Shown here piece by piece: positions 8,202-24,829 of a stretch of 64,000 bases of DNA. The notes under the pieces are model-generated. The model searched no databases. It was given only the letters and a program-made list of their open reading frames with translations, and was not told the origin of the DNA. The stretch is from an uncultured Parachlamydiaceae bacterium. GTDB taxonomy: Bacteria; Chlamydiota; Chlamydiia; Chlamydiales; Parachlamydiaceae. The number at the start of each line of letters is the position of its first letter. The stretch's first letter is position 1. The stretch is from positions 1,272,766 to 1,336,765 of the forward strand of contig CAVULX010000004.1 of NCBI GenBank assembly GCA_963742415.1, written 5' to 3'. Position numbers and translations under genes: made by a program.

Positions 8202-9296
8202 ATGGTGAACAATCTTTTAAGCCGCACTGTGGATGATTGGACATATTTTTCCATCTCACCAATTGAAAATGTTTACACATTCCACAATCTGTCAGATAAC
8301 CAAGCAAACGGGAAGGAAAAGCATTCACTCTGGGGGACTATTCCAGACACGACTTTAAATCCGCAAAATTTAAGCAATATCTCATCTAACTCTGGAAGCA
8401 AACCAATAGATGAAAAGGTGTATAAATGCTTCATGTGTCAAATGGAAACTATTCCTAAACAACGACGCGGAGGTCCTTGGGGTACAAACACCCTTTGTAA
8501 TCCTTGTGGTACGAAATACGCTAAAAAAGCTTCTCTTTTAAAAGACAAAACAAACCAGGACATTCCTTACATTCCATTAGAATTTTATGTTAAACCTCAA
8601 AAGCATTATTCTTTTATAGGAGTAGGATTCAAAGAAGTGCCTGAATTCTTAGAGGAAATAAAGCAATATTTTACACCCACGAAATGTAAAGAAATCGAGG
8701 AATTAGCAAATAATTTTATAGAAATCGGGAAAAAAACACAGAAATACAAAAAAACTCTTCTAAAAAACACTCCAATAAATGCTGACCATATCAGAACTTA
8801 TGTAGAACTTGCAAGATCCCTATGTGCTATTGAGGACAAATCTAAAAAAAATAGCAGCAATCCGTCCAAAAATAGGGAAAAGATGAAAAACACATACAAA
8901 CTTGTCAGTGAGCAAAAATATGTAGGAATTACTCGAGAAGGTAAGCAAGTAGATCTTGAAAGGCTATCCCCCGATTTGGAAGCAATAGAAGCTTATATAA
9001 TCAGCAGGGAAAAGCGTATTATAGCAACAAATGTTACTGCAAACAGATCCAGAAAAACAGGAACAAAAAGAAAAAAATCTGCTGTGGATTCTGTGAAAAA
9101 GATTCCGCAACGTCGTGACCCTACTGAAGAGAAAACCAATACATCTAAAGAGAAAGCCTCAGAAGCTCTTACTATTAATTCTGAAGGAGCTGCAAAACCG
9201 CTAAGAAAAAAAAGAAAAATTGATTCAGTGGTAGTTTCTGCGGAAAAGACTCTCAGTCGTCATGATCTGAAATTTATTTTAAATTCAGATAAATGA
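8202..9296 (+). CDS. GATA-type zinc-finger protein, paralog 1 (most divergent)
   Basis: CFMC-X19-CNPC with GPWGTNTL, basic RKKRK, C-terminal HDLKFILNS. Confidence 0.85.
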   Translation: MVNNLLSRTVDDWTYFSISPIENVYTFHNLSDNQANGKEKHSLWGTIPDTTLNPQNLSNISSNSGSKPIDEKVYKCFMCQMETIPKQRRGGPWGTNTLCNPCGTKYAKKASLLKDKTNQDIPYIPLEFYVKPQKHYSFIGVGFKEVPEFLEEIKQYFTPTKCKEIEELANNFIEIGKKTQKYKKTLLKNTPINADHIRTYVELARSLCAIEDKSKKNSSNPSKNREKMKNTYKLVSEQKYVGITREGKQVDLERLSPDLEAIEAYIISREKRIIATNVTANRSRKTGTKRKKSAVDSVKKIPQRRDPTEEKTNTSKEKASEALTINSEGAAKPLRKKRKIDSVVVSAEKTLSRHDLKFILNSDK

Positions 9297-9527
9297 CTCA
9301 ACTTTTGAAGGGGGTTTCTCCCCCCTAAAGTTTAGGACGAAAAACTTCCAAATGCTTAACCGCGAATATCGCAGGCATTCAGCCTGGGAAAGGAGTAAAC
9401 TATATATTCTTTTAATTTTAAGAATTTAAACATTACCAGTTATTTTTAATTTTACAAATAAATTATGTTTGATTATTTTTTTTGTGATTCTTTAAACAAC
9501 TTTAACTTTTAATCAAGAGGTGGATTT

Positions 9528-10742
9528 ATGTCCTTTCTCAGTGAACTTGGTAATAACTATAATAATTGGGGAAATTACATCCCTCCAGATTACATGAGGA
9601 GCCCGTCGGACAATACGTCAACAAGCCAAACAAGCACGGGGGAAGACTGTAAAGACATGGGCGCAATGGATGAGTTAAACACTCCTGGACTTGAAATATC
9701 TTCACCGCCTAATTTACATGCCTTACCATGGTTCAATCATGCATTCAGAGCCCTTATAGATAAGGTCGAAACTGCGAATATTATTGCTAGCCTTTCAACC
9801 TCCCCCGCCCCTGTCTACATTAACATGAACATAAGCATGAATTTTCCGAATATCTTTATAGATTCAAACGAAGGCGCAAACCAATCGCAATCCCCAGCTC
9901 TGGAGAAAAAGAGGAAAAGGGTGAGAAAGGAAACAGATAAAAGTCTTATATGTTTCGTATGTTTCAATAAAAAAACACAACAAATGTGGCGCAGTGGTCC
10001 TTATGGTAAGAAAACACTTTGCAATGGATGTGGTCTAAAGTATTCAAAAGAGAGATTTAGACTAATACAAAAATGGATAAAGCACATTCCACTACAATTT
10101 TATGCAAAACCTAAGGGGGTTAAAAGGTCACCTACTTCATTAAAGGACATAAAAAACTATTTTGATGAAAAGAAATTTCAAGAACTCGAGGCATTAACTG
10201 AGAAATATATATCAATTATGAGATCATCCGAAAATCCAAATGCACTAATAGTTGGAAGTGATCTCATCACAGCTTATATTCGACGCGCTAAAAAACTCTG
10301 TTCTGTTGAAGAGGCTGAGCAAACCTCATCTAGAATAGGAGAAGGCACGAGATGCGCTCGGCTAATAATAGGTGAATATACTGGAGCTACCCAGGACGGC
10401 AAAATAGAAGCGCTTCCTGAAGGACTCGCATCAGATGCTGCTGCAATCGAAGCTTATGTCAAATGCTTTACTTTGTATAGTAATAGGGATCGTTGCCCGA
10501 CAGAAGAAAAAATCGAGCACTACAAAAGGCAACTGAAATCAAAAACCCCCGAAACATCAAAAGAACCACAAACTAAAAGGCAAAAAATTGATGGGAGTGA
10601 CATTGTAAGTCCTATTGACGAGATATCCCTCATGCCTGAAGAGCAAATTGATCTTACTGACGAGCCTCAAGCAATTAGAAAGCGATTTCGCTTTTATTTT
10701 AAATTCAATGGCGACTCACTTCCGATAGTCCAGAACCCATAA
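9528..10742 (+). CDS. GATA-type zinc-finger protein, paralog 2
   Basis: CFVC-X19-CNGC (WRSGPYGKKTL), with KKRKRVRK and KRQK. Confidence 0.88.
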   Translation: MSFLSELGNNYNNWGNYIPPDYMRSPSDNTSTSQTSTGEDCKDMGAMDELNTPGLEISSPPNLHALPWFNHAFRALIDKVETANIIASLSTSPAPVYINMNISMNFPNIFIDSNEGANQSQSPALEKKRKRVRKETDKSLICFVCFNKKTQQMWRSGPYGKKTLCNGCGLKYSKERFRLIQKWIKHIPLQFYAKPKGVKRSPTSLKDIKNYFDEKKFQELEALTEKYISIMRSSENPNALIVGSDLITAYIRRAKKLCSVEEAEQTSSRIGEGTRCARLIIGEYTGATQDGKIEALPEGLASDAAAIEAYVKCFTLYSNRDRCPTEEKIEHYKRQLKSKTPETSKEPQTKRQKIDGSDIVSPIDEISLMPEEQIDLTDEPQAIRKRFRFYFKFNGDSLPIVQNP

Positions 10743-10977
10743 TTTCAACTTCTAGGCCGAAGGCTTTGGCCTTCGAGTCTTAAGGTTTGGACGTTTTGTG
10801 AAAAAAATATTTATATTATCGCATCTCTGTCGCCGCTATCGTGTGCATTTATTAAATAATCTAACATTACCATGTATTTTTAATTTTATAAATAAATTAT
10901 GTTTGATTATTTTTGGTGATAATCTATTATTTTATGAGTCTTTAAACAACTTTAGCTTTTAATCAAGAGGTAGATTT

Positions 10978-11868
10978 ATGTATTTTCCCGATGAATTTAG
11001 TTGGTATGTAAATAGTAATTTCTATAATCGGAAAATTTATCCCGATCTATATAACACGGGGGCCCCATCGGACAACACATCAACAAACCAAGCAAACACG
11101 GCGGAAGCCTGTATAAACTTGGACGCAAGGGATGAGATAGACGCTCTCACAGATGAAATATTTACACAAATTATTCCACAAACGGATGATTCACCTTCTA
11201 TCAATCAATTGAAAGCCCTTGCAAGCAATATCCAAAGTGCAGTTATTATTCCTAACCCTCTTCGAACCACCCCTTCTGCCTACATTAACTTGCAACCTTT
11301 TTCGAGTGTCTTTATAAATTCGAACGATGGCGCCAACCAATCGCAGCCTGAAAATTCGGATCGTGATTCAGTCCAGTGTGATTTAACCCAGAAAGAAGTT
11401 TCGCAAACAGAGACTAATTCTAACGATGCCCCACCCATTAAAAAGAAGAAAAGGGGGAGAAAGGAATTAGATAAAAGTGCTTTTCAATGTTTCATGTGCT
11501 TGGACCGAGAGTCGCCTGAGTGGCGCAAAGGTCCTTGGGGCCGAAATACTTTTTGTAATAAGTGCGGTCTACAATATAGTAAGTATGTAAAACTGTTAAA
11601 CAAAAAGATAATTTTGTGTATTCCTTTCGAATTTTATAAAAAACCTTCTTGGGCTACATCTATAGAAGGAAGAATGTTAAACCGCGAGCCTGAATACTAC
11701 GGTCTAGCAATAAAACATCTTCCTGAAAATGAGAAGAAATCTTTTATAGATCTGACTAGCAGCAAACTTGATTTGCATTATATTTTAAATCATCCTGAGG
11801 GAACCGCTGTCACGGAAAGTAATCAAAGGGTGGAGTTTAGACCACGAAGAAAAAAAAAGAAGATATGA
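10978..11868 (+). CDS. GATA-type zinc-finger protein, paralog 3 (shortened)
   Basis: CFMC-X18-CNKC (SPEWRKGPWGRNTF), KKKKRGRK, LDLHYILN, RRKKKK. Confidence 0.88.
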   Translation: MYFPDEFSWYVNSNFYNRKIYPDLYNTGAPSDNTSTNQANTAEACINLDARDEIDALTDEIFTQIIPQTDDSPSINQLKALASNIQSAVIIPNPLRTTPSAYINLQPFSSVFINSNDGANQSQPENSDRDSVQCDLTQKEVSQTETNSNDAPPIKKKKRGRKELDKSAFQCFMCLDRESPEWRKGPWGRNTFCNKCGLQYSKYVKLLNKKIILCIPFEFYKKPSWATSIEGRMLNREPEYYGLAIKHLPENEKKSFIDLTSSKLDLHYILNHPEGTAVTESNQRVEFRPRRKKKKI

Positions 11869-12045
11869 TTCGGAAATATGACAAAGCTACTGAGGCCTAA
11901 TAAATTCCCTTGGGGAATAACTCCAGAGAGAATGTATCTGCCCCTCTTTTAGTTAAGAAGCGCTTTTGACGGCTCGAATACCGTGTATGTTTATGAAATA
12001 ATTAAACATTACCATGTAATTTTTGATTTTATAAAGATATTTTGT

Positions 12046-12074
12046 TTGATTGTTTTTTTGTAATAGACTATTAT
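12046..12074 (+). promoter_or_regulatory. Sigma70/sigma66-like promoter TTGATT-N17-TATTAT, conserved upstream of GATA paralogs 3-6
   Basis: Same hexamers with 17-nt spacing before paralogs 4, 5 and 6, and 16-nt spacing before paralog 3, followed by an AGAGGT ribosome-binding site. Confidence 0.6.
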
Positions 12075-12123
12075 TTTTTGAGCATTTAAACAAAATTAAC
12101 TTTTAATTTAGAGAGGTAAGTTT

Positions 12124-13320
12124 ATGGATCCCTATAATAAGTTTATGGAACCCTATAATAGGTATGCTTCGGGAGAATATTGGAATCCCCCAACCCAATC
12201 AAACATTCAAAACAACTCACGCTCGGGTACTTTTAGTCGATTGACCAATATCGTTCTGCCGTCATTGAGAAGTTTGCCCTTTCCAGAAAGATTGGAACAT
12301 CCTGCAAGCAGAACCAACCAAGCAGCTATAAGAGCCAACAATGAGGCTGGATCTGCTCAACATTCGCAAAACCGCACCGAACCAAATGTAACCATTAATG
12401 TCGACTATCACCCCCAAGTAGTTATCCAAACCAGTCCACAAGAACAATATTCTCTCATCAGACCTCGATCCAAAAGGGGAAGAAAGGCACTGGATTCAAG
12501 TCAGTTTGTATGTTTAGTATGTTTCGAGCGCGAAACAGGACAGTGGCGCTCAGGACCTTGGGGTGGTAACACACTTTGCAACGGATGTGGTATAAGCTAT
12601 TCAAAAAGTATAGATAAACTAGAAAAGAAACATATAAAGCACATTCCACTACAATTTTATGCAAAACCTGAGGGGGTTCAAAATATAAAAAACAGAACAT
12701 TAGAAAACTCACCTTATTTCTTAACAGACATAAAAAACTATTTTGATGAAAAGAAATTTAAAGAACTCAAGTCATTAGCTGAGAGATATAAATCAATTAA
12801 GAGATCATCCTGGTACCCACAAACATCTAAAGTTGAAATAAATGCTAACCACATCAACGCTTATATTCAACGTGCTGTAAATCTCTGTTCTCTTGAAGAA
12901 GCGGCTAATCCATCTGACGAAGGAGGCACGAAATGCCTTCCAGTGAGAATAGGTAAATATAACGGAACTACCCACGATGACAATATAGAAGAGCTTTCTA
13001 AAAACCTAGCAAAAGACGCTGCTGCAATCGAAGCTTATGTCCATCACTTTACTTGGGATAGAGGTCTTTGCTCGACACAAGAAAAATACGATCACAACAT
13101 AAGACAACTGGCTTTGCTAGAAACATCTGAAGAACCACAAACAAAAAGGCGAAAATTCGATATGAATGACCGTTTAAATCCTGTTCCTGTTGAGGATGAC
13201 TCCCTAATGCTTGAAGATCGAATTGCTCCCACTGAAGAGCCTAAAGGAGCACAAACACAACCAAGAAGAGACGAGCGTCTTGATATAGCTTTTATTTTAA
13301 ATTCTCCAATGGACGACTAA
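12124..13320 (+). CDS. GATA-type zinc-finger protein, paralog 4
   Basis: CLVC-X18-CNGC (QWRSGPWGGNTL), KRRK, LDIAFILNS. Confidence 0.9.
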   Translation: MDPYNKFMEPYNRYASGEYWNPPTQSNIQNNSRSGTFSRLTNIVLPSLRSLPFPERLEHPASRTNQAAIRANNEAGSAQHSQNRTEPNVTINVDYHPQVVIQTSPQEQYSLIRPRSKRGRKALDSSQFVCLVCFERETGQWRSGPWGGNTLCNGCGISYSKSIDKLEKKHIKHIPLQFYAKPEGVQNIKNRTLENSPYFLTDIKNYFDEKKFKELKSLAERYKSIKRSSWYPQTSKVEINANHINAYIQRAVNLCSLEEAANPSDEGGTKCLPVRIGKYNGTTHDDNIEELSKNLAKDAAAIEAYVHHFTWDRGLCSTQEKYDHNIRQLALLETSEEPQTKRRKFDMNDRLNPVPVEDDSLMLEDRIAPTEEPKGAQTQPRRDERLDIAFILNSPMDD

Positions 13321-13361
13321 CTTACCTTTCCAGCCCTCCAGAACCCATAATTTCAATTTAT

Positions 13362-13387
13362 AGGCCGAAGGCTTTGGCCTTCGGCCT
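13362..13387 (+). terminator. Hairpin downstream of GATA paralogs (probable terminator)
   Basis: AGGCCGAAGGC-TTTG-GCCTTCGGCCT. Copies at ~10754 and ~14807. Confidence 0.6.
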
Positions 13388-13535
13388 TAGAGTTTTACCC
13401 ATAGGCATCAATAATTAAACATTACCATGTATTTTTAATTTTATAACGATTTTTTGTTTGATTATTTTTTTGTGATAGACTATTATTTTTTGAACATTTA
13501 AACAACATTAACTTTTAATTAATAGAGGTAAATTT

Positions 13536-14765
13536 ATGGACCCCCATTTCCAGGCTTGGTCAAATTTGTATCCTTTAGGAGAAAATTGGAATCCTCCAAC
13601 CCAACCAACCATAGTTTCAAACAACCCCCACTCGGGTACACCTAGTCTATTGACCAATATCCGTCTGCCGCAATTGATAGCTTTGTCCTGTATAGAAAGT
13701 CCGGAAAATCCTGCAAGGAGAACCAACGAAGCGGCTATAAGAGCTAACAATCTAACCATTAATGTCAACTATCACCCCAGTATCGACTATCACCCCCAAG
13801 TAGTTGTCCAAACCAGTCCAGTGGAAAGAGGTGGCCAAAATCAAAAATTACCAAGACAATATTCTTTCATCCCACCCGAACCAAGGGTTAAAAAGAAAAG
13901 GTCGGCAACAAAATTAGATACAAGTCAGTTAGATACAAGTCAGTTTGTATGTTTCGTATGTTTCGAGCAAGGAGCAGAAAAAAAGTGGCGCAGTGGTCCT
14001 CAAGGTGATAACACACTCTGCAACGGATGTGGTGTAGAATATGGAAAAAATATATTCAGACTGCGAAACGAAGATATAAAGCACATTCCTCTACAATTTT
14101 ATGCGAAACCTGAAGGGGTTCAATCTATAGAAGGCCTAAATGAATCACCTGAATTTTTACGGAGCATAAAAAAATATTTTGATGAAACGAAATTTAAAGA
14201 ACTCGCGTCATTAGCTGAGAAATATAAATCAATTAAAAGATCAAGCGGTGGCCCACAAAAAACAGAAAAAGTTGAAATAAATGCTAATCACATTAAAGCT
14301 TATATTCAACGCGCGAGAACGCTCTGTTCTCTTAAAGATGAAGCTAATGAAACCTCATCTGGAAGGAGAGGCACGAAATGCCATGCGGTAAAAATAGGTA
14401 AATATGAAGGAACTACCATTGAAGACAAAAAAGAAAAGCTTCCTAAAAAACTAGCTTCTGATATTGCTGCAATCGAAGCTTATGTCAATTGCTTTACTTG
14501 GGAAAGAGATTTTTATACGATAGAAGAACAACATAATTACAACAAAAAACAACTGGACTTGCTAGGAGATGAACCATCAAAAAAACCGCCAGCAAAAAGG
14601 CAAAAAATTGATCTGAATGACATTTTAAATCCTACTGAAGAGGGATCCTCAATGATTCAAGATCAAATTGCACCTACTGGCGAGACTATAGTAACACAAA
14701 CACAACCAAGAAGAGACAAGCGTCTTGAAATAGCTTTTATTTTAAATTCTCCAAACGACGACTAA
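13536..14765 (+). CDS. GATA-type zinc-finger protein, paralog 5
   Basis: CFVC-X19-CNGC (WRSGPQGDNTL), KRQKIDLNDILN, LEIAFILNS. Confidence 0.9.
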   Translation: MDPHFQAWSNLYPLGENWNPPTQPTIVSNNPHSGTPSLLTNIRLPQLIALSCIESPENPARRTNEAAIRANNLTINVNYHPSIDYHPQVVVQTSPVERGGQNQKLPRQYSFIPPEPRVKKKRSATKLDTSQLDTSQFVCFVCFEQGAEKKWRSGPQGDNTLCNGCGVEYGKNIFRLRNEDIKHIPLQFYAKPEGVQSIEGLNESPEFLRSIKKYFDETKFKELASLAEKYKSIKRSSGGPQKTEKVEINANHIKAYIQRARTLCSLKDEANETSSGRRGTKCHAVKIGKYEGTTIEDKKEKLPKKLASDIAAIEAYVNCFTWERDFYTIEEQHNYNKKQLDLLGDEPSKKPPAKRQKIDLNDILNPTEEGSSMIQDQIAPTGETIVTQTQPRRDKRLEIAFILNSPNDD

Positions 14766-14963
14766 CTTACCTTTCCAGTCCTCCAGAACCCATAATTTCA
14801 ATTTATAGGCCGAAGGCTTTGGCCTTCGGCCTTAAGGTTTGGCATTTTAAATAAATTCCCGAAGGGAATCTTGAGATTGGACATTTTGTAAAAAAATATT
14901 TACATTATCACATCTCTATCGCCGCTACCGCATAGGCATCAAGCTAAAGTAAACTATTTCTTA

Positions 14964-15028
14964 CCAGGCTGAAAGCCTGTCATATAATAGCCTGGGGCAG
15001 CGCCCCAGGTAATATCATGCATAATCAT
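14964..15028. repeat. REP-like unit (CAGGCTGAAAGCCTG and CCTGGGGCAGCGCCCCAGG hairpins)
   Basis: Near-identical to units at 16591-16730 and related to 32191-32300 beside the Y1 transposase. Confidence 0.75.
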
Positions 15029-15090
15029 TTGCTTTTTCACTGATCGGTTCCATTTTATTTTGACTGACCACTTTCCTTTTTCCTTTTTTC
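15029..15090 (-). pseudogene. Duplicated fragment of the 3' part of the FGE-domain gene
   Basis: TTGCTTTTTCACTGATCGGTTCCATTTTATTTTGAC... matches 16773-~16833. Confidence 0.85.
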
Positions 15091-15266
15091 CGTTAGATAT
15101 CCATATTTCAACCGGAGTGTTCGCTACCATCTATGTTTATTAAATAATTAAACATTACCAATTGTTTTTAATTTATAAAAATATTTTATTTGATTATTTT
15201 TTTGTAATAGATTATTATTTTTTAAGCATTAAACAAAATTAACTTTTAATTAAGAGAGGTAAATTT

Positions 15267-16451
15267 ATGGAACCCTATAATAGGTATGCTCCGGGAGAAT
15301 ATCGGCATCCCCCAACCCAACCAAACATAGTTCAAAGCAACCCACACTCGGGTAATTCTCCATTGATAGATTTGACGATGGAAAGTTTGGGAAATATTGC
15401 AAGTAGAACCAACCAAGCAGTTATATCACAAAACGACACCAGACCAAATGTTACCATTAATGTCAACTATCGTCCCCAAGTAGTTATCCAAACCAGTCCA
15501 ATAGAAAGAGATAGCATTCCTCAAAGAAAATTTACTTTCTACGAATTCCAATCAACTCCAAGGGAAAGGAGAACAAAGCCAGTAGATACAAGTCAGCTTG
15601 TATGTTTCGTATGTTTTGAGCAAAAAACAGGGGATCTGTGGCGCAGTGGTCCTCACGGCAATTACACACTTTGCAATGGATGTGGTGTAAAGTATGGAAG
15701 AAATATATATAGCCTGAAAAAAGGATTTATAAAGCACATTCCACTACAATTTTATGCAAAACCTGAGGGAGTTCAATCTATAGAAGGCAGAGAATTAAAC
15801 GACTCACCCGACTTTTTACAGAACATAAAAAAATATTTTGATGAAAATAAATTTAAAGAGCTCGCGTCATTAGCTGAGAGATATAAATCAATTAATAGAT
15901 CAACCGGTGGCCCAAAAACAGCAGTAGTTGAAATAAAAGCTAATCACATTAAAGCTTATATTCAACGTGCTAAAAACCTCTGTTCTCTTAAAGATGAAGC
16001 TGATCAAAACCCATCTGGAAGGGGAGGCACGAAATGCCGTGCGGTGAAAATAGGTAATTATGACGGAACTACCTTTGATGGCAAAACAGAAGAGCTTTCT
16101 AAAGAACTAGCAATAGACGCTGCTGCAATCGAAGCTTATGTCCATCAGTTTACTTGGGATAGAAGTCTATGTTCGACACAAGAAAAATATGATCACAACA
16201 TAAGACAACTGGCCTTGCTAGAAACATCTGAAATAGATGAAACATCAAAAGAGCCACAAGCAAAAAGGCGAAAATTTGATATCAATGACATTTTAAATCC
16301 TGTTGAGGATGACTCCTTAATGCTTGAAGATCGAATTGCTCCTACTGGCAAGCCTGAAGGGACACAAACACAACCAAGAAGAGATTTTCGTTTAGAATTA
16401 GCTTATATTGTAAACCCTTCAAATAACGACTCATTTAATTTCAATTTGTAG
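15267..16451 (+). CDS. GATA-type zinc-finger protein, paralog 6
   Basis: CFVC-X19-CNGC (LWRSGPHGNYTL), KRRKFDINDILN, LELAYIVN. Confidence 0.9.
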   Translation: MEPYNRYAPGEYRHPPTQPNIVQSNPHSGNSPLIDLTMESLGNIASRTNQAVISQNDTRPNVTINVNYRPQVVIQTSPIERDSIPQRKFTFYEFQSTPRERRTKPVDTSQLVCFVCFEQKTGDLWRSGPHGNYTLCNGCGVKYGRNIYSLKKGFIKHIPLQFYAKPEGVQSIEGRELNDSPDFLQNIKKYFDENKFKELASLAERYKSINRSTGGPKTAVVEIKANHIKAYIQRAKNLCSLKDEADQNPSGRGGTKCRAVKIGNYDGTTFDGKTEELSKELAIDAAAIEAYVHQFTWDRSLCSTQEKYDHNIRQLALLETSEIDETSKEPQAKRRKFDINDILNPVEDDSLMLEDRIAPTGKPEGTQTQPRRDFRLELAYIVNPSNNDSFNFNL

Positions 16452-16590
16452 GACGAAGGCCACTGGAGTTTGGCATTTTAAATAAATTCCCGAAGGAAAT
16501 CTCGAGATTGGACATTTTGTGAAAAATTATTTCCATTATCACATCTGTCCGCTGCCGCATAGGCATGAAGCTAAAGTAAACCATTTCTTA

Positions 16591-16730
16591 CCAGGCTGAA
16601 AGCCTGGTTTACAATAGCCTGGGGCAGCGCCCCAGGTAATATCATGCATAATCATTAGCAGGCTGAAAGCCTGCCATATAATAGCCTGGGGCAGCGCCCC
16701 AGGTATTGTCATAAAAATCATTCACAGGCT
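16591..16730. repeat. Tandem REP-like array (about 2 units)
   Basis: Repeated CAGGCTGAAAGCCTG...ATAGCCTGGGGCAGCGCCCCAGGTA. Confidence 0.8.
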
Positions 16731-19101: not shown

Positions 19102-22100
19102 GTGAATCATCATCGTCAAATCATTTTAAAAAAAGTCAAAGTTCATAATCTCAAATCGATCAACCTTTCCTTAGATACTAATGAGCTGATCGTTTTTACA
19201 GGGGTGTCCGGATCAGGCAAATCCTCGTTAGCTTTCGATACCCTCTATGTGGAAGGGCAGCGACGCTATGTCGAATCCCTTTCGACCTTTGCCCGGCGTC
19301 AATTGGGGGAGATGGCAAAGCCTGATCTGGAACATGCCTCCGGCATCTCTCCCACCATTTCAATTGAACAAAAAACTGCCGGAAGAAATCCCCGCTCTAC
19401 TGTCGGAACCATGACCGAAATCTACGATTACCTTCGCGTGCTATATGCTCGCGTCGGCATTCCCCATTGCCCCGTCAGCGGTGAACCTGTTGCTCCTCAA
19501 AGCCGTGAACGGATCATCAAAACGGTCCAAAATCTTCCCGATGGAAAAAAACTGGTTATCTTAGCCCCCTATGCTAAGGGAAAAAAAGCGGAATTCAAAG
19601 AAGATTTTCAAGAGCTTCTTACGAAAAGGGTACATGCGGGCTCGAGTCGATGGCAAGATCATCAATTTGAAGCGATGAAATTGTTTTAGATGGAAGTGTC
19701 GCCCATGATGTCGATGTTGTTATCGATCGGCTTACCGTTAATAAACGAAAATCATTCTCGGATAGCCGAGGCGATCACTAACGCTCTTAATCTAGGCAAG
19801 GGGTATGTGCTACTCCTGGATCCTGACACCTACGAAGAACAACTTTTTTCCATGCATGCCTATTCCCCAAAATCGGGCTTGTCTTACTCAGTCTTGGAAG
19901 CCGCACGATTTTTCTTTCAATAGTCCTTCCGGTATGTGCCCTCGGTGTCATGGCATGGGAAGAGTGCAAGAATTCGATTTAAAGGCGATCATCAATCCCG
20001 AGCTAAGCATTGCTGAAGATTGCTGCTCCATCGGCGAGTTCCTACCAAACTGTCCGCTACGGCAACATCTATGATAATTTAGCTGAGATCTATGAGTTTA
20101 GTGTCCACACCCCTTGGAAAAAACTTTCTGAGCAAGCCAAAAAGGTATTCCTCTACGGCACAGAAAAAAAATGGACCCGGATGTACTTTGTCCATCCTAA
20201 TACCGGAGCCATGTGGACAGATCATGTCCAATGGCGGGGTGTGTTGCATGAAGCCCACATCCGCTATGCAGAAGCTAAAAGTGAAAGCTACCGCAAAAAA
20301 ATGCAGAGCATCATGCGCGAAGGATTTGCCCGGAATGCCATGGAGACCGCCTTAAGCCTTATCCTGCGGCACGCTTTGCTGAATGGAAAACGGATCTACG
20401 AACTTGACCGCCATGACCGTCAAAGAGTGCCTCCATTTTTTTGAACACCTCCCTTTATCCCCTCAAGAGCAACTGATTGCAGAAGAACTACTCAAAGAGA
20501 TTCGACAACGACTGCAATTTCTGCTTGAGGTCGGGCTTGCACTATCTCGACCTTAGACCGGACAGCTCCCACTCTTTCCGGCGGGGAAGCCCAGCGGGTG
20601 CGCCTCGCCTCGCAAATCGGCTGCGGCCTTGTCGGCATCACCTATATCCTCGATGAACCTTCCATCGGGCTTCATCCTCGGGATAATAAAAAGCTTATCC
20701 ATACTTTGAAACATCTTCGCGATATGGGAAACACCGTCATCGTCGTCGAACATGATGAAGAAACCATCTGGGAAGCTGATCGGATCGTCGACTTTGGACC
20801 CGGACCCGGAATTCGCGGCGGAGAGATCGTTGTCAACGGAGATCTATGCTCGAGCTCATCCACAATCCCAACTCCCTAACAGCAGGCTATCTAACCGGAA
20901 AACTGCAAAATCCCGATCCCTAAAAAACGGCGAAAGCCGTTAAAAGAATCGATCGAAATCCTAGGCGCTACCCATCACAACCTTAAAAAAGTCAACGTGA
21001 AAATCCCTTTAGGCGTGTTTATTGCTGTGACAGGAGTTTCGGGATCGGGCAAATCTTCTTTGATCACCGACATCTTATATCCCGCCTTGTCCAACTCACT
21101 TGCATGGTAGGAGAACACCCTGTCGGCGCCCATAACGAAATCAAAGGGATCGAAAATATCGACAAAGTGATCGCCATCGACCAATCCCCCATCGGCCGAA
21201 ATCCCCGTTCCAATCCTGCCACCTACATCAAAGTTCTTCGATGAAATCCGCGACACTTTTCAGCCAGCTTCCTGAAAGCCAAGCCAGAGGCTATAAGCCT
21301 GGACGCTTTAGCTTTAATGTCAAAGAAGGCTCCTGCCCCCAATGTGAAGGGATGGGAATGATCAAAATCGACATGGATTTCATGGAAGCTGCCTGGGTTG
21401 ATTGCCCCCTATGCAAAGCAAAACGGTTTGACCATGAAACCCTGTCCGTGTTTTTCAAAGGAAAAAACATCTACGATGTTCTGGAAATGGATGTGGCGAA
21501 GCTCTTGAATTTCTTTGCCAACATCCCCTCACATCAAACATAAGCTCGAGACTTTGCAGCAAAGTGGGCATGGAATACATCAAACTGGGGCAATCCTCGA
21601 CGACGCTTGTCCGGAGGAGAAGCCCAACGGATCAAACTGGCCAAAGAGCTGTCCGCCCTTCCACCGGCAAAACACTCTATATTTTCGATGAGCCTACAAC
21701 AGGACTCCATTTCCATGACATCAAACATCTTCTGGAAGTTTTGCACGAACTGGTCGACCGAGGCAATACTGTCCTGGTCATCGAACACAACATGGATATT
21801 GTCAAAACAGCTGATTGGATCATCGACCTTGGCCCAGAAGGGGGCGAGGAAGGCGGAAAAGTGATCGCTACCGGCAAACCTGAACAGATTGCCAAGATGG
21901 ACACGCCTACAGGCCATGCCGTTGATGAGGCTTTGCATCACGATCTACAAAGAAAAAATCGAAGCGGCCCTGCATCTCTGCAAAGAGAATCAAAAAGAGG
22001 TAAAGGGAAAGGGAAAAGGAACGAGCATCCATGAAATTATCGGTCACCGGAGCTGAGCAAAATAATTTAAAAAATGTCAATGTCACAATTCCACGCGAAA

Positions 22101-24829
22101 GACTGACCGTCTGCACAGGACCTTCAGGATCAGGGAAAACCTCTCTGGCTTTTGAAACGATCTATGCCGAAGGGCAGCGGCGCTATATTGAATCGCTTTC
22201 TCCTTATGCCCGGCAATTTGTCAAGCAAATGCCAAAACCTAAAGTGGGCCATGTGGAAGGGCTTTCCCCTGCCATCGCCATCGAACAAAAAGCCCATGCA
22301 GGCAATCCCCGCAGCACCGTCGGCACAATGACAGAAATCTATGACTACCTGCGCGTCCTCTATGCCCGAGTCGGCATTCCCCATGATCCCGATACCGGCG
22401 AAGTGATCAAAGCTATCAGCAAAGACCATGTTGTCGATCGTATTATGTCCTATCCCGAAGGGGAAAAAATCCAAGTTTTAGCCTCCATCGACGATCCGCA
22501 AAAATGAAAAGTTTGAAGAGATCGTCTCAAGGCTGAAACGACAAGGCTTTTTACGCATACGCCTCAATGGGGTTTATTACGATCTGGATACCGAAGCAGA
22601 TTCGATTGCTTTCGACCGCAAACGGAAAAATGACTTTGTTCCTGGTGATCGATAGGCTCAAAGTGAATCCTACCATCCAACATCGCCTTTTCGAAGCAAT
22701 AGAAAATGCTGCCAACATCGGAGCAATAATACTCTCGTCATCGTGAAAGAAGATAGGATGTGTTCTTCAATTTTGCCTTTGCCGTCGAAAGCACCGGCAA
22801 GTCCTATCCTGAAATTACACCGCATACCTTTGCTTTCAATACGGCCGAAGGGATGTGCCTCGATTGCCTGGGATTAGGGTATCAATATGGAGCCAACTTA
22901 ACCAAATATCCCGAAATTATGCACAATTCGATATCAAGGCTTCTGGATGTCTTGTGGCAAGACAAGCTAAGCCATTTGGCTTTTGAATTAGTCGAAGACT
23001 TCCTGAAAGCAGAGAAAATTGATCTCTTAACTCCCCTCTATAAACTGCCATCTAGTAAACTACAGCTATTCATGAACGGTCCGGCAATTGATAAATGGTA
23101 TACTTCGTCCAAAGGATTTCGATTTCACTGGGTAGGGATCAATAATGTCCTCGCTAAAGCCGGCAAAAGCGCGTCACCGGAAATCCGTGAAGGTGTCACT
23201 CCCCTTTTGGATGAGTTAGAGTGCCTCTCCTGCCAAGGAGCCCGATTAAATCCTTTGGCACGCCATGTCACAATCAACGATCTTTCCATTAGCAATTTAT
23301 GCCGCTTGCCCATCGGAAGAACCCTTCCTTTTATCGAAGGGATTAAATTTGAAGCCAAAGAGGCCAAACTGCTCGAAGAGGTGCACGCTCAGCTTCTCAG
23401 CCGGCTGAGCTTTCTCAGCGAAGTTGGCCTGCACTATTTATCCCTCGATCGACGCGCCCCCACCTTGAGCGGCGGAGAAGCGCAGCGGATCCGTTTAGCC
23501 AGGCAGCTTGGAAGCGGCCTAACGGGTGTTCTATACGTCCTCGACGAGCCTACAATAGGGCTACATCCACGCGATAACGATCGGCTGAATAGAGCTTTGA
23601 AACAATTGAAAGAGCTTGGCAACACCATGATTATGGTGGAGCACGATCCCTTAACGATCCAAACAGCCGATTACATCTTAGACTTTGGCCCTCAATCCGG
23701 AGATCATGGCGGCCATATCGTCGCCCAAGGGACCTTAAAACAAATCATGCGGAATAAGGATTCCTTGACAGGAAAATATTTGTCAGGAAAACTCAAGATC
23801 CCTGTTCCCGAAGAAAGGCGAAAGTCTTTGAACGGTGCTCTGGAAATCAAAAATGCCAAGACAAACAACTTAAAAAATCTGTCGGTCAAACTTCCAATAG
23901 GATTGATGACGTGCCTTACAGGTGTTTCAGGATCAGGAAAATCGACTTTGATGCAGCAGATTATTTTTCCGGCCATGCAACAAGGGATGTTAGAACATGA
24001 CTCGATCATCATCGATGGAGCGACGGTCTCAGGGATTTCCCATTTTGATAAGGTGCTTTCAATTGACCAAAATCCGATCGGCCATACAGTGCGATCCGAT
24101 GTGGGCACCTATGTGGATGTCTTAAGCAGAATGCGCGATTTCTTTGCCACGCTGCCAGCAGCCAGAGCTCAAGGCTTGCAGCCAAAGCATTTCAGCTATA
24201 ACCATCGGCGCGGCATGTGCTCTTCTTGCTGGGGTTTGGGCTACAAGAAAGTGGAGATGTACTTTCTTCCCCCTGTGAAAGTCGTTTGCGATGATTGTCA
24301 AGGGCTCCGCCTTAATCCGGTGAGCTTGGAGGTCCAATATGCGGGAAAAAACTTCGGACAATATCTCGACATGACGGTCGATGAGGCGAGAGTGATTTTT
24401 GAAAATCATCCCCGCATCACGCGGATTCTCGACACCCTGATTTCTGTGGGTTTCGGATATTTGAAACTGGGGCAAGAGATGGTGTCTCTTTCGGGCGGCG
24501 AGGCGCAGCGGATTAAACTCAGCCGCGAGCTAGCCAAGCGGTCTACAGGTAAAACTTTATACCTTCTGGATGAACCTACAACCGGATTGCATAGCGAAGA
24601 TATCAAGAAATTGCTGACGGTCCTCCATAAGCTTGTGGACAAAGGAAATACAATCGTCATCATCGAACATAATATGGACATCATCAAAAATGCCGATTAC
24701 GTCATCGACCTAGGCCCCGAAGCTGGCGAAGAGGGAGGAAAAATCATCGCCACCGGCACCCCCGAACAAATCGCCAAAAATAAAAAATCCTGGACCGGAC
24801 AATATCTCGTCAAAGAAAATTGTTTATAG
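19102..24829 (+). pseudogene. uvrA: Excinuclease ABC subunit A, double-length chlamydial type, broken by many frameshifts in ~19620-22760 (possibly sequencing error)
   Basis: Two UvrA modules: [14 protein letters not shown] and [14 protein letters not shown] starts, four [12 protein letters not shown] signatures and zinc-finger Cys pairs, spread over several frames. Confidence 0.93.

Follow-up and report, generated by a model that had tools for sequence, protein, structure and literature searches.

A conserved C-terminal peptide on six tandem GATA-type proteins of an uncultured Parachlamydiaceae bacterium is a candidate dock for a host cofactor

Introduction

The N-terminus of the Saccharomyces cerevisiae homeodomain protein MATalpha2 reads M-N-K-I-P-I-K-D-L-L-N-P-Q (Lettow 2023, Table 2, PMC10163088), and its residues I4, L9 and L10 are reported to be required for binding to the WD40 domain of Tup1, IxIxxLL being described as an eh1-like fungal motif (Copley 2016, PMC4943189). 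The metazoan engrailed homology 1 (eh1) motif, FxIxxIL, is likewise a short hydrophobic peptide of this spacing on DNA-binding proteins, and it is bound by the top face of the TLE1 WD40 domain (Wu 2012, PMC3419727; Copley 2016, PMC4943189). For Fep1, a GATA factor of Schizosaccharomyces pombe, a conserved [VI]xx[IL][LM] motif and an interaction with Tup11/12 are reported (Copley 2016, PMC4943189), and its C-terminal region is reported to bind the top face of the Tup11 WD40 domain with a dissociation constant of about 10 µM (Wu 2012, PMC3419727). Small plant GATA factors of class B carry a short conserved hydrophobic C-terminal box, the LLM domain (PMC4337238). Here we analyze a stretch of 64,000 nucleotides, called the window below, from the genome of an uncultured Parachlamydiaceae bacterium (assembly GCA_963742415.1, contig CAVULX010000004.1, positions 1,272,766 to 1,336,765), in which six tandem genes for GATA-type proteins share a short hydrophobic motif near their C-termini.

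To our knowledge, few bacterial effectors are sequence-specific eukaryotic transcription factors in their own right. Bacterial nucleomodulins are comparable in that host-derived domains occur in an intracellular bacterium and nuclear delivery is presumed, as a meeting abstract describes for Legionella (PMC13030319), but the nucleomodulins described in that source modify chromatin or RNA-binding proteins, whereas the window encodes sequence-specific GATA factors. Searches of the literature turned up no paper on chlamydial GATA proteins, which the supplementary domain tables of genome papers may nevertheless list, and no sequence-specific GATA factor effectors with a host docking peptide.

Results and Discussion

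Six GATA paralogs with a C-terminal motif

Six open reading frames (ORFs) lie head to tail on the + strand of the window (positions 8202-16451), each encoding one C-x2-C-x18/19-C-x2-C finger, and the finger signatures W-R-x-G-P and T-L-C-N-x-C-G are present in all of them (paralogs p1 to p6, Table 1). With the Pfam GATA profile (PF00320, gathering cut-off 26.8 bits), p6, p2, p3 and p4 score above the cut-off (36.6, 34.8, 32.1 and 31.2 bits), while p5 is just under it (26.5 bits) and p1 scores 22.3 bits. The solved domain closest to the family profile is that of Arabidopsis GATA18 (E = 2.1e-14). No further GATA copies were found in the bacterium's own genome (2.69 Mb in 4 contigs, completeness 84%), and when p6 by itself was the query of a homologue search, the paralogs of the window were all that it retrieved.

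Past the finger, at distances that go beyond 200 residues, and 3 to 50 residues from the protein end, the paralogs carry copies of a short motif that ends in asparagine. It occurs twice in each of p4, p5 and p6, the proximal copy of p4 being degenerate. An earlier note, made from the letters of the window alone, had quoted the motif strings of p1, p3, p4, p5 and p6, and every one of them was found in its place, including LDLHYILN, which the shortened p3 retains. Paralog p2 has a degenerate proximal copy (KRQK-IDGSDIVS) and lacks the distal motif in-frame. Its tail reads R-F-R-F-Y-F-K-F-N in frame 1, and the +1 frame gives the family motif with a stop 8 codons on; the distal motif of p2 is thus masked by a one-base frameshift, either a true mutation or an assembly error, and at the DNA level it is encoded in all six paralogs.

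The note had also proposed a layout of DNA-binding finger, nuclear localisation signal and corepressor-recruiting peptide, of which the sequence bears out the GATA finger, the basic run and a short peptide that is conserved. Besides the basic runs ahead of the proximal copies in p4, p5 and p6 (Table 1), p1 contains KRKK and RKKRK, and p3 has a basic box, KKKKRGRKELDKS, together with a C-terminal RRKKKK. Its description of the tails as divergent except for the motif holds for p1 and p3 against the rest but fails for p4, p5 and p6, whose tails are alike along their whole length (overall identity to p6 63-69%), so that the motif does not stand out within that trio.

Conservation of the motif beyond the window

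A profile of the six paralogs was searched against 1.84 billion representative sequences. Of the 3685 matches obtained, the best 150 were examined, among which 145 were non-own. The pattern [ILMVF]xx[ILMV][ILMV]N was scored after the last finger, with 500 shuffles as control; because the pattern was picked after the motif had been seen and the proteins are related, the enrichment figures given here are descriptive and are not probabilities. The motif follows the finger in 36 of the 145 top matches (shuffles: mean 3.85, maximum 13) and lies within 20 residues of the C-terminus in 26 of them (shuffles: mean 0.9, maximum 5). Its distribution is uneven, with 34 carriers among 80 single-finger proteins vs 2 among 65 multi-finger proteins. 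Asparagine follows Phi-x-x-Phi-Phi (Phi, hydrophobic residue) in 35 of 61 cases, against a background of 6.3%.

Of 72 further genomes in the family, 8 have GATA fingers, as do 11 of 400 genomes sampled across the phylum, a count that includes the bacterium's own. Among 19 unique non-own chlamydial GATA ORFs, nine have the motif within 5 residues of the C-terminus, and the tails of these nine are otherwise unrelated. The earlier note would have counted its proposal as refuted if homologues elsewhere did not keep the motif; they do, as these nine chlamydial ORFs and the 36 top matches show. An 80%-identical orthologue of p3 (P0005) reads LNLDYILN, altered only at x positions (L-x-L-x-Y-I-L-N kept). 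The conservation of the motif is not due to chance, nor is it a relic of recent duplication. Comparison of about 18-20 kb around two of the other chlamydial GATA loci (in genomes G018 and G057) with the first 32 kb of the window revealed no common flanking gene.

Several further GATA-like loci were met in these searches. Three distinct motif-bearing GATA proteins (P0054, P0061 and P0126), all beginning with V, are encoded on one metagenome contig of 6321 bases, which suggests that a further uncultured organism has a tandem array of GATA genes, probably a bacterial one. Proteins from two other chlamydial families (L036 in genome G354 and L037 in genome G248) contain 5-6 tandem GATA-like C-x2-C-x17-19-C-x2-C units of the W-[RH]-[KR]-[DN]-P type, and the tail motif is absent from them. 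A GATA finger is also encoded on a 447-base contig filed as Streptomyces actuosus (L059), which is probably a contaminant.

Shape of the motif

The conserved core of the motif is [KR]-x-x-[IL]-x-x-[LI]-L-N, mostly at the C-terminus. It was tabulated by position over 35 non-own instances, in which asparagine at position 8 is fixed by the search pattern and is confirmed separately by the 35 of 61 cases above. Of the 35 instances, 24 have K or R at position 0, 30 have I or L at position 3, 32 have L or I at position 6 and 31 have L at position 7; the motif is followed by the C-terminus in 8 instances, P in 7, N in 5 and S in 4. At position 1 the top listed residues are M (9), G (6), H (6), S (3), I (2), A (2), V (2) and C (1), with phenylalanine not among them. 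Family-wide, positions 3, 6 and 7 are thus kept and position 1 is not. In the window itself, hydrophobic residues occupy positions 1, 3, 6 and 7, the spacing of IxIxxLL, in six of the eight in-frame instances, the two that fail being HDLKFILN and FDMNDRLN.

AlphaFold2 modelling of a 160-residue chlamydial protein from genome G018 gave a predicted local distance difference test (pLDDT) score of 88-97 over the basic box, the finger and the following helix (residues about 70-128), and a pLDDT of about 64, without secondary structure, at the C-terminal motif. The distance from finger to motif ranges from 17 to more than 250 residues across proteins. Low pLDDT and variable distance together suggest that the motif is a free linear peptide and not part of a fold.

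Amoebozoan carriers and an accessory basic box

For 30 matches the source was looked up. Carriers of the motif among EukProt transcripts come from Gocevia, Paradermamoeba, Thecamoeba, Filamoeba and Phalansterium, all Amoebozoa, and other carriers come from short contigs of metagenomes or metatranscriptomes. Two more carriers came from a second search, a protein of the Balamuthia mandrillaris genome that ends in the motif (P0190, annotated as 'GATA zinc finger domain-containing protein 10') and a motif-bearing Physarum transcript, bringing the amoebozoan genera to seven. In that search only 8 of 110 non-own matches have the motif, the list being dominated by fungal WC-2-type GATA factors; these have high finger scores but lack the motif. 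The F-N-K-L-I-N of Kazachstania africana, 21 residues past the finger, was also set aside as probably a chance match, as Lachancea homologues have the same helix without L-I-N.

A basic box ahead of the finger, K-R-G-R-K-P-x-D-K-S, is common to the motif carriers, and the motif is found in 24 of 32 proteins with this N-terminal box vs 27 of 164 without it. The box is kept in p3 and p4 and degraded in p1, p2, p5 and p6. Both p3 and p4 combine a [KR]-G-[RK]-[KR] box within 22 residues before the single finger with a C-terminal Phi-x-x-Phi-L-N, as members of what we call the amoebozoan-type GATA subfamily, a group defined in this analysis and not a curated family. Across the 62 columns of the DNA-binding region, p3 and a Gocevia protein have 53% identity.

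With amoebozoan single-finger GATA factors such as the Balamuthia protein (P0190), the family in the window has in common the basic box before the finger, an 18-residue finger loop and the same C-terminal motif. It differs in that p1, p2, p4, p5 and p6 have an additional middle domain, about 170 residues long, for which no relatives were found, that four of the paralogs have a 19-residue loop, and that the motif is doubled in p4, p5 and p6. In a tree built from 39 rows and 62 columns of the DNA-binding region, the six paralogs alone group together (93/79). We infer descent from an amoebal gene from the shared accessory motifs and not from phylogeny.

Candidate partners of the peptide

The motif is probably a docking peptide for a host cofactor of some kind, and its form appears to fit the Tup-type variant of MATalpha2 better than metazoan eh1. 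The p5 peptide K-I-D-L-N-D-I-L-N-P and the MATalpha2 peptide K-I-P-I-K-D-L-L-N-P agree in 6 of their 10 residues (K, I, D, L, N and P), and a metagenomic protein (P0020) ends in K-I-P-I-D-S-L-L-N, which aligns with the MATalpha2 peptide. Besides the I-x-I-x-x-L-L spacing, the motif of the window and the MATalpha2 peptide have in common a lysine before and N-P after. They differ in placement, the MATalpha2 peptide being N-terminal on a homeodomain protein and the motif of the window C-terminal on a GATA factor, and in position 1, which is not conserved in the GATA family. Fep1 is alike in being a GATA factor whose C-terminal region is reported to sit on the top face of a Tup-family WD40 domain, but it is two-fingered and iron-sensing. 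According to Copley (2016), Tup_N matches are found in Amoebozoa. On these grounds we tentatively propose a Tup1-type corepressor as the partner. The plant LLM domain, another short C-terminal box, has an invariant L-L-M where the motif has [LI]-L-N, and it is set apart by definition (Behringer and Schwechheimer 2015, PMC4337238).

Several points weigh against a Tup1 dock on host-derived proteins. Position 1, which corresponds to the mutation-sensitive I4 of MATalpha2, is G, H or S in 15 of the 35 non-own instances, and 10 of the 19 chlamydial GATA ORFs counted above have no motif. The pattern is generic as well as short, and its hydrophobic spacing also fits ligands of Sin3 PAH domains and LxxLL-like activator motifs. 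With D at x2 and x5 and P-x-E-D/E after them, the proximal copies are acidic, which would also suit an activation domain, and yeast repressor peptides are known to bind Sin3, Cyc8 and Tup1 promiscuously (Lettow 2023, PMC10163088). With regard to origin, 26 of 36 inner branches of the tree of the DNA-binding region are open and no donor is indicated, and some of the 'amoebozoan' transcripts could in principle derive from symbionts.

Some of these points lead to a dock for a host cofactor other than Tup1, such as the Sin3 PAH domains, Cyc8/Ssn6 or a coactivator surface (Mediator, KIX/TAZ-type), in which last case the proteins could activate instead of repress. The evidence from conservation and disorder is identical for such a dock and for a Tup1 dock, the Phi-x-x-Phi-Phi core has LxxLL-like spacing, Sin3 ligands are listed with the patterns Phi-x-Phi-x-x-Phi and Phi-x-x-Phi-x-Phi (Lettow 2023, PMC10163088), and the surroundings of the proximal copies in p4, p5 and p6 are acidic. 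However, K or R precedes the family consensus (24/35), which is not acidic outside those three paralogs, and the conserved asparagine, often followed by proline, is common to the MATalpha2 peptide and lies outside the quoted Sin3 patterns. We regard a partner other than Tup1 as rather unlikely.

Quite improbable, in our judgment, is that the motif is no cofactor site at all but serves in localisation or stability (as an export signal or C-terminal degron) or extends the DNA-binding domain. This would agree with its position at or near the extreme C-terminus (the last 20 residues in 26 of the 145 top matches) and with the fixed 19-21 residues that separate it from the finger in many eukaryotic members. 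Against this, the motif lies anywhere between 17 and more than 250 residues from the finger, with distances above 200 in the window, AlphaFold2 does not pack the motif on the finger, and the copies in the window are duplicated and scattered from 3 to 50 residues before the end.

The earlier note had proposed a canonical eh1 motif recruiting Groucho/TLE corepressors. One copy, the proximal motif of p6, agrees with this in sequence, FDINDIL being an exact FxIxxIL of the kind bound by the TLE1 WD40 top face; no other copy in the window is exact. The agreement does not extend to the family, for phenylalanine at position 1 occurs in 1 of 7 pattern-matching instances of the window (2 of 8 in-frame instances when the degenerate FDMNDRLN is counted) and is not among the residues listed for the 35 non-own instances. 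The anchoring phenylalanine of eh1 is thus not conserved here, whereas the asparagine and the C-terminal placement that are conserved are not eh1 features. As reported by Copley (2016), Groucho orthologues are essentially confined to Holozoa, with only Naegleria and Trimastix outside, TLE_N matches are not reported for Amoebozoa, where Tup_N matches are, and the pocket of Tup1 (Y580/L596) is argued to clash with the phenylalanine of eh1. A Groucho/TLE dock is therefore very unlikely.

A functionless chance pattern or neutral relic of recent duplication would accord with the shortness of the pattern, which alone is low in information (by our own estimate about one chance occurrence per ten 400-residue proteins), with the p4, p5 and p6 tails being alike throughout and with the post hoc choice of the search pattern, but this reading is largely refuted by the presence of the motif across genera in proteins whose tails are otherwise unalignable, about ninefold over shuffles, by the conserved asparagine, and by the p3 orthologue, which keeps the hydrophobic positions while x positions vary. 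In chlamydial proteins the motif is conserved C-terminally in at least six genomes, as would agree with a signal by which chlamydial effectors are secreted or bound by a chaperone. This is hardly credible, since the motif also ends GATA factors of amoebozoan transcriptomes and of the Balamuthia genome annotation, and type III secretion signals are N-terminal.

A possible role in the amoebal nucleus

As a tentative explanation of these observations, we suggest that a host GATA factor gene was captured and tandemly amplified to six copies in one Parachlamydiaceae genome, and that the motif is a disordered docking peptide for a Tup1-type cofactor, inherited along with the host-type gene and kept. 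The main argument for delivery is that such a peptide would be of no evident use to the bacterium unless the protein works in the host, which would make the proteins delivered effectors. The genome has a type III export apparatus, with two FHIPEP genes (SctV/FlhA-type), through which the proteins may be delivered into the amoebal host, and the basic runs would drive nuclear import. Inside the amoebal nucleus the peptide would recruit a host cofactor and would hence have been retained in the bacterium, the likeliest cofactor being the WD40 face of a Tup1-type corepressor, as for the N-terminal peptide of yeast MATalpha2. Genes with GATA sites would then be silenced, although the direction of the effect could be the opposite. 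The proteins may be active repressors of host genes, as the earlier note proposed.

A GATA family keeping a host cofactor dock would, if real, indicate direct rewiring of amoebal transcription. The most specific version of the proposal, in which the combination of captured GATA factor and docking peptide in six copies, with the peptide doubled, provides sequence-specific Tup1-recruiting silencers in the host nucleus by way of an undescribed amoebozoan Tup1-recruitment motif, is doubtful; were it true, these silencers would be the chlamydial counterpart of the transcription activator-like (TAL) effectors of plant pathogens. With Tup1 as the partner, the motif would link the single yeast example, MATalpha2, with animal eh1 in one ancient family of WD40-docking peptides, and the origin of Groucho/Tup-mediated repression would become testable outside opisthokonts. 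The natural variants of the peptide are at hand for mapping the docking partners of amoebal GATA factors.

Coordinates and genomic context

Table 1. Positions in the window of the six GATA paralogs, their motif copies and other features mentioned in the text.
Feature	Position	Strand	Remarks
GATA paralog p1, 364 residues	8202-9296	+	finger 8427-8507, 19-residue loop
p1 distal motif HDLKFILN	9261-9284	+	3 residues ahead of stop
GATA paralog p2, 404 residues	9528-10742	+	finger 9951-10031
p2 tail, read in two frames	10640-10742		
p2 distal motif SDFAFILN	10681-10704	+	in +1 frame
GATA paralog p3, 296 residues	10978-11868	+	without middle domain; finger 11488-11565, 18-residue loop
p3 motif LDLHYILN	11767-11790	+	
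GATA paralog p4, 398 residues	12124-13320	+	finger 12511-12588
p4 proximal motif FDMNDRLN	13156-13179	+	degenerate, after KRRK
p4 distal motif LDIAFILN	13279-13302	+	
GATA paralog p5, 409 residues	13536-14765	+	finger 13950-14030
p5 proximal motif IDLNDILN	14607-14630	+	after KRQK
p5 distal motif LEIAFILN	14724-14747	+	
GATA paralog p6, 394 residues	15267-16451	+	finger 15603-15683
p6 middle domain	15715-16260		residues about 150-330
p6 box past the finger	15735-15775		
p6 basic run KRRK	16263-16274	+	
p6 proximal motif FDINDILN	16275-16298	+	followed by P-V-E-D-D
p6 distal motif LELAYIVN	16392-16415	+	11 residues ahead of stop
19-base palindrome	about 14991, 16618 and 16685		the last two in region 16560-16720
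UvrA-like region	19102-24829		in-frame stops at 19687-19689 and 22505-22507

The finger loop is 18 residues long in p3 and p4 and 19 in p1, p2, p5 and p6. Fingers with the 19-residue loop are without the T-P-E-W-R signature, reading for example K-T-G-D-L-W-R. The two loop lengths within the cluster may mean altered DNA specificity within the family.

A middle domain of about 170 residues is conserved in p1, p2, p4, p5 and p6 and is absent from p3 and from every other GATA protein examined. It gave no Pfam match, and a search of the ESM Atlas with p6 residues 150-335 gave no usable match. An AlphaFold2 model of p6 from a 7-row alignment was unusable as a whole (mean pLDDT 39), helices of the middle domain reaching a pLDDT of 73-86 in patches. 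Another box, I-K-H-I-P-L-Q-F-Y-A-K-P-E-G, stands 15-20 residues past the finger in each of the six paralogs. A similar sequence, R-R-I-P-L-E-F-F-V-P-G-E, follows the finger of a GATA protein of Kazachstania africana, the corresponding Lachancea sequence being R-K-V-P-R-V-F-D-V-P.

The cluster has a G+C content of 0.36-0.38, vs 0.43-0.49 for the surrounding pyruvate kinase and UvrA genes. The UvrA-like region is broken into about ten ORFs in different frames with at least two in-frame stops, which points either to a duplicated uvrA in decay or to an assembly prone to errors. A G+C-rich 19-base palindrome is found in the spacers of the cluster, and downstream of p6 a tandem unit of about 67 bases includes it twice. 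With at most one mismatch it has 28 sites in the genome, against 0 for the reversed control, and it looks like a dispersed hairpin repeat of the repetitive extragenic palindromic (REP) type.

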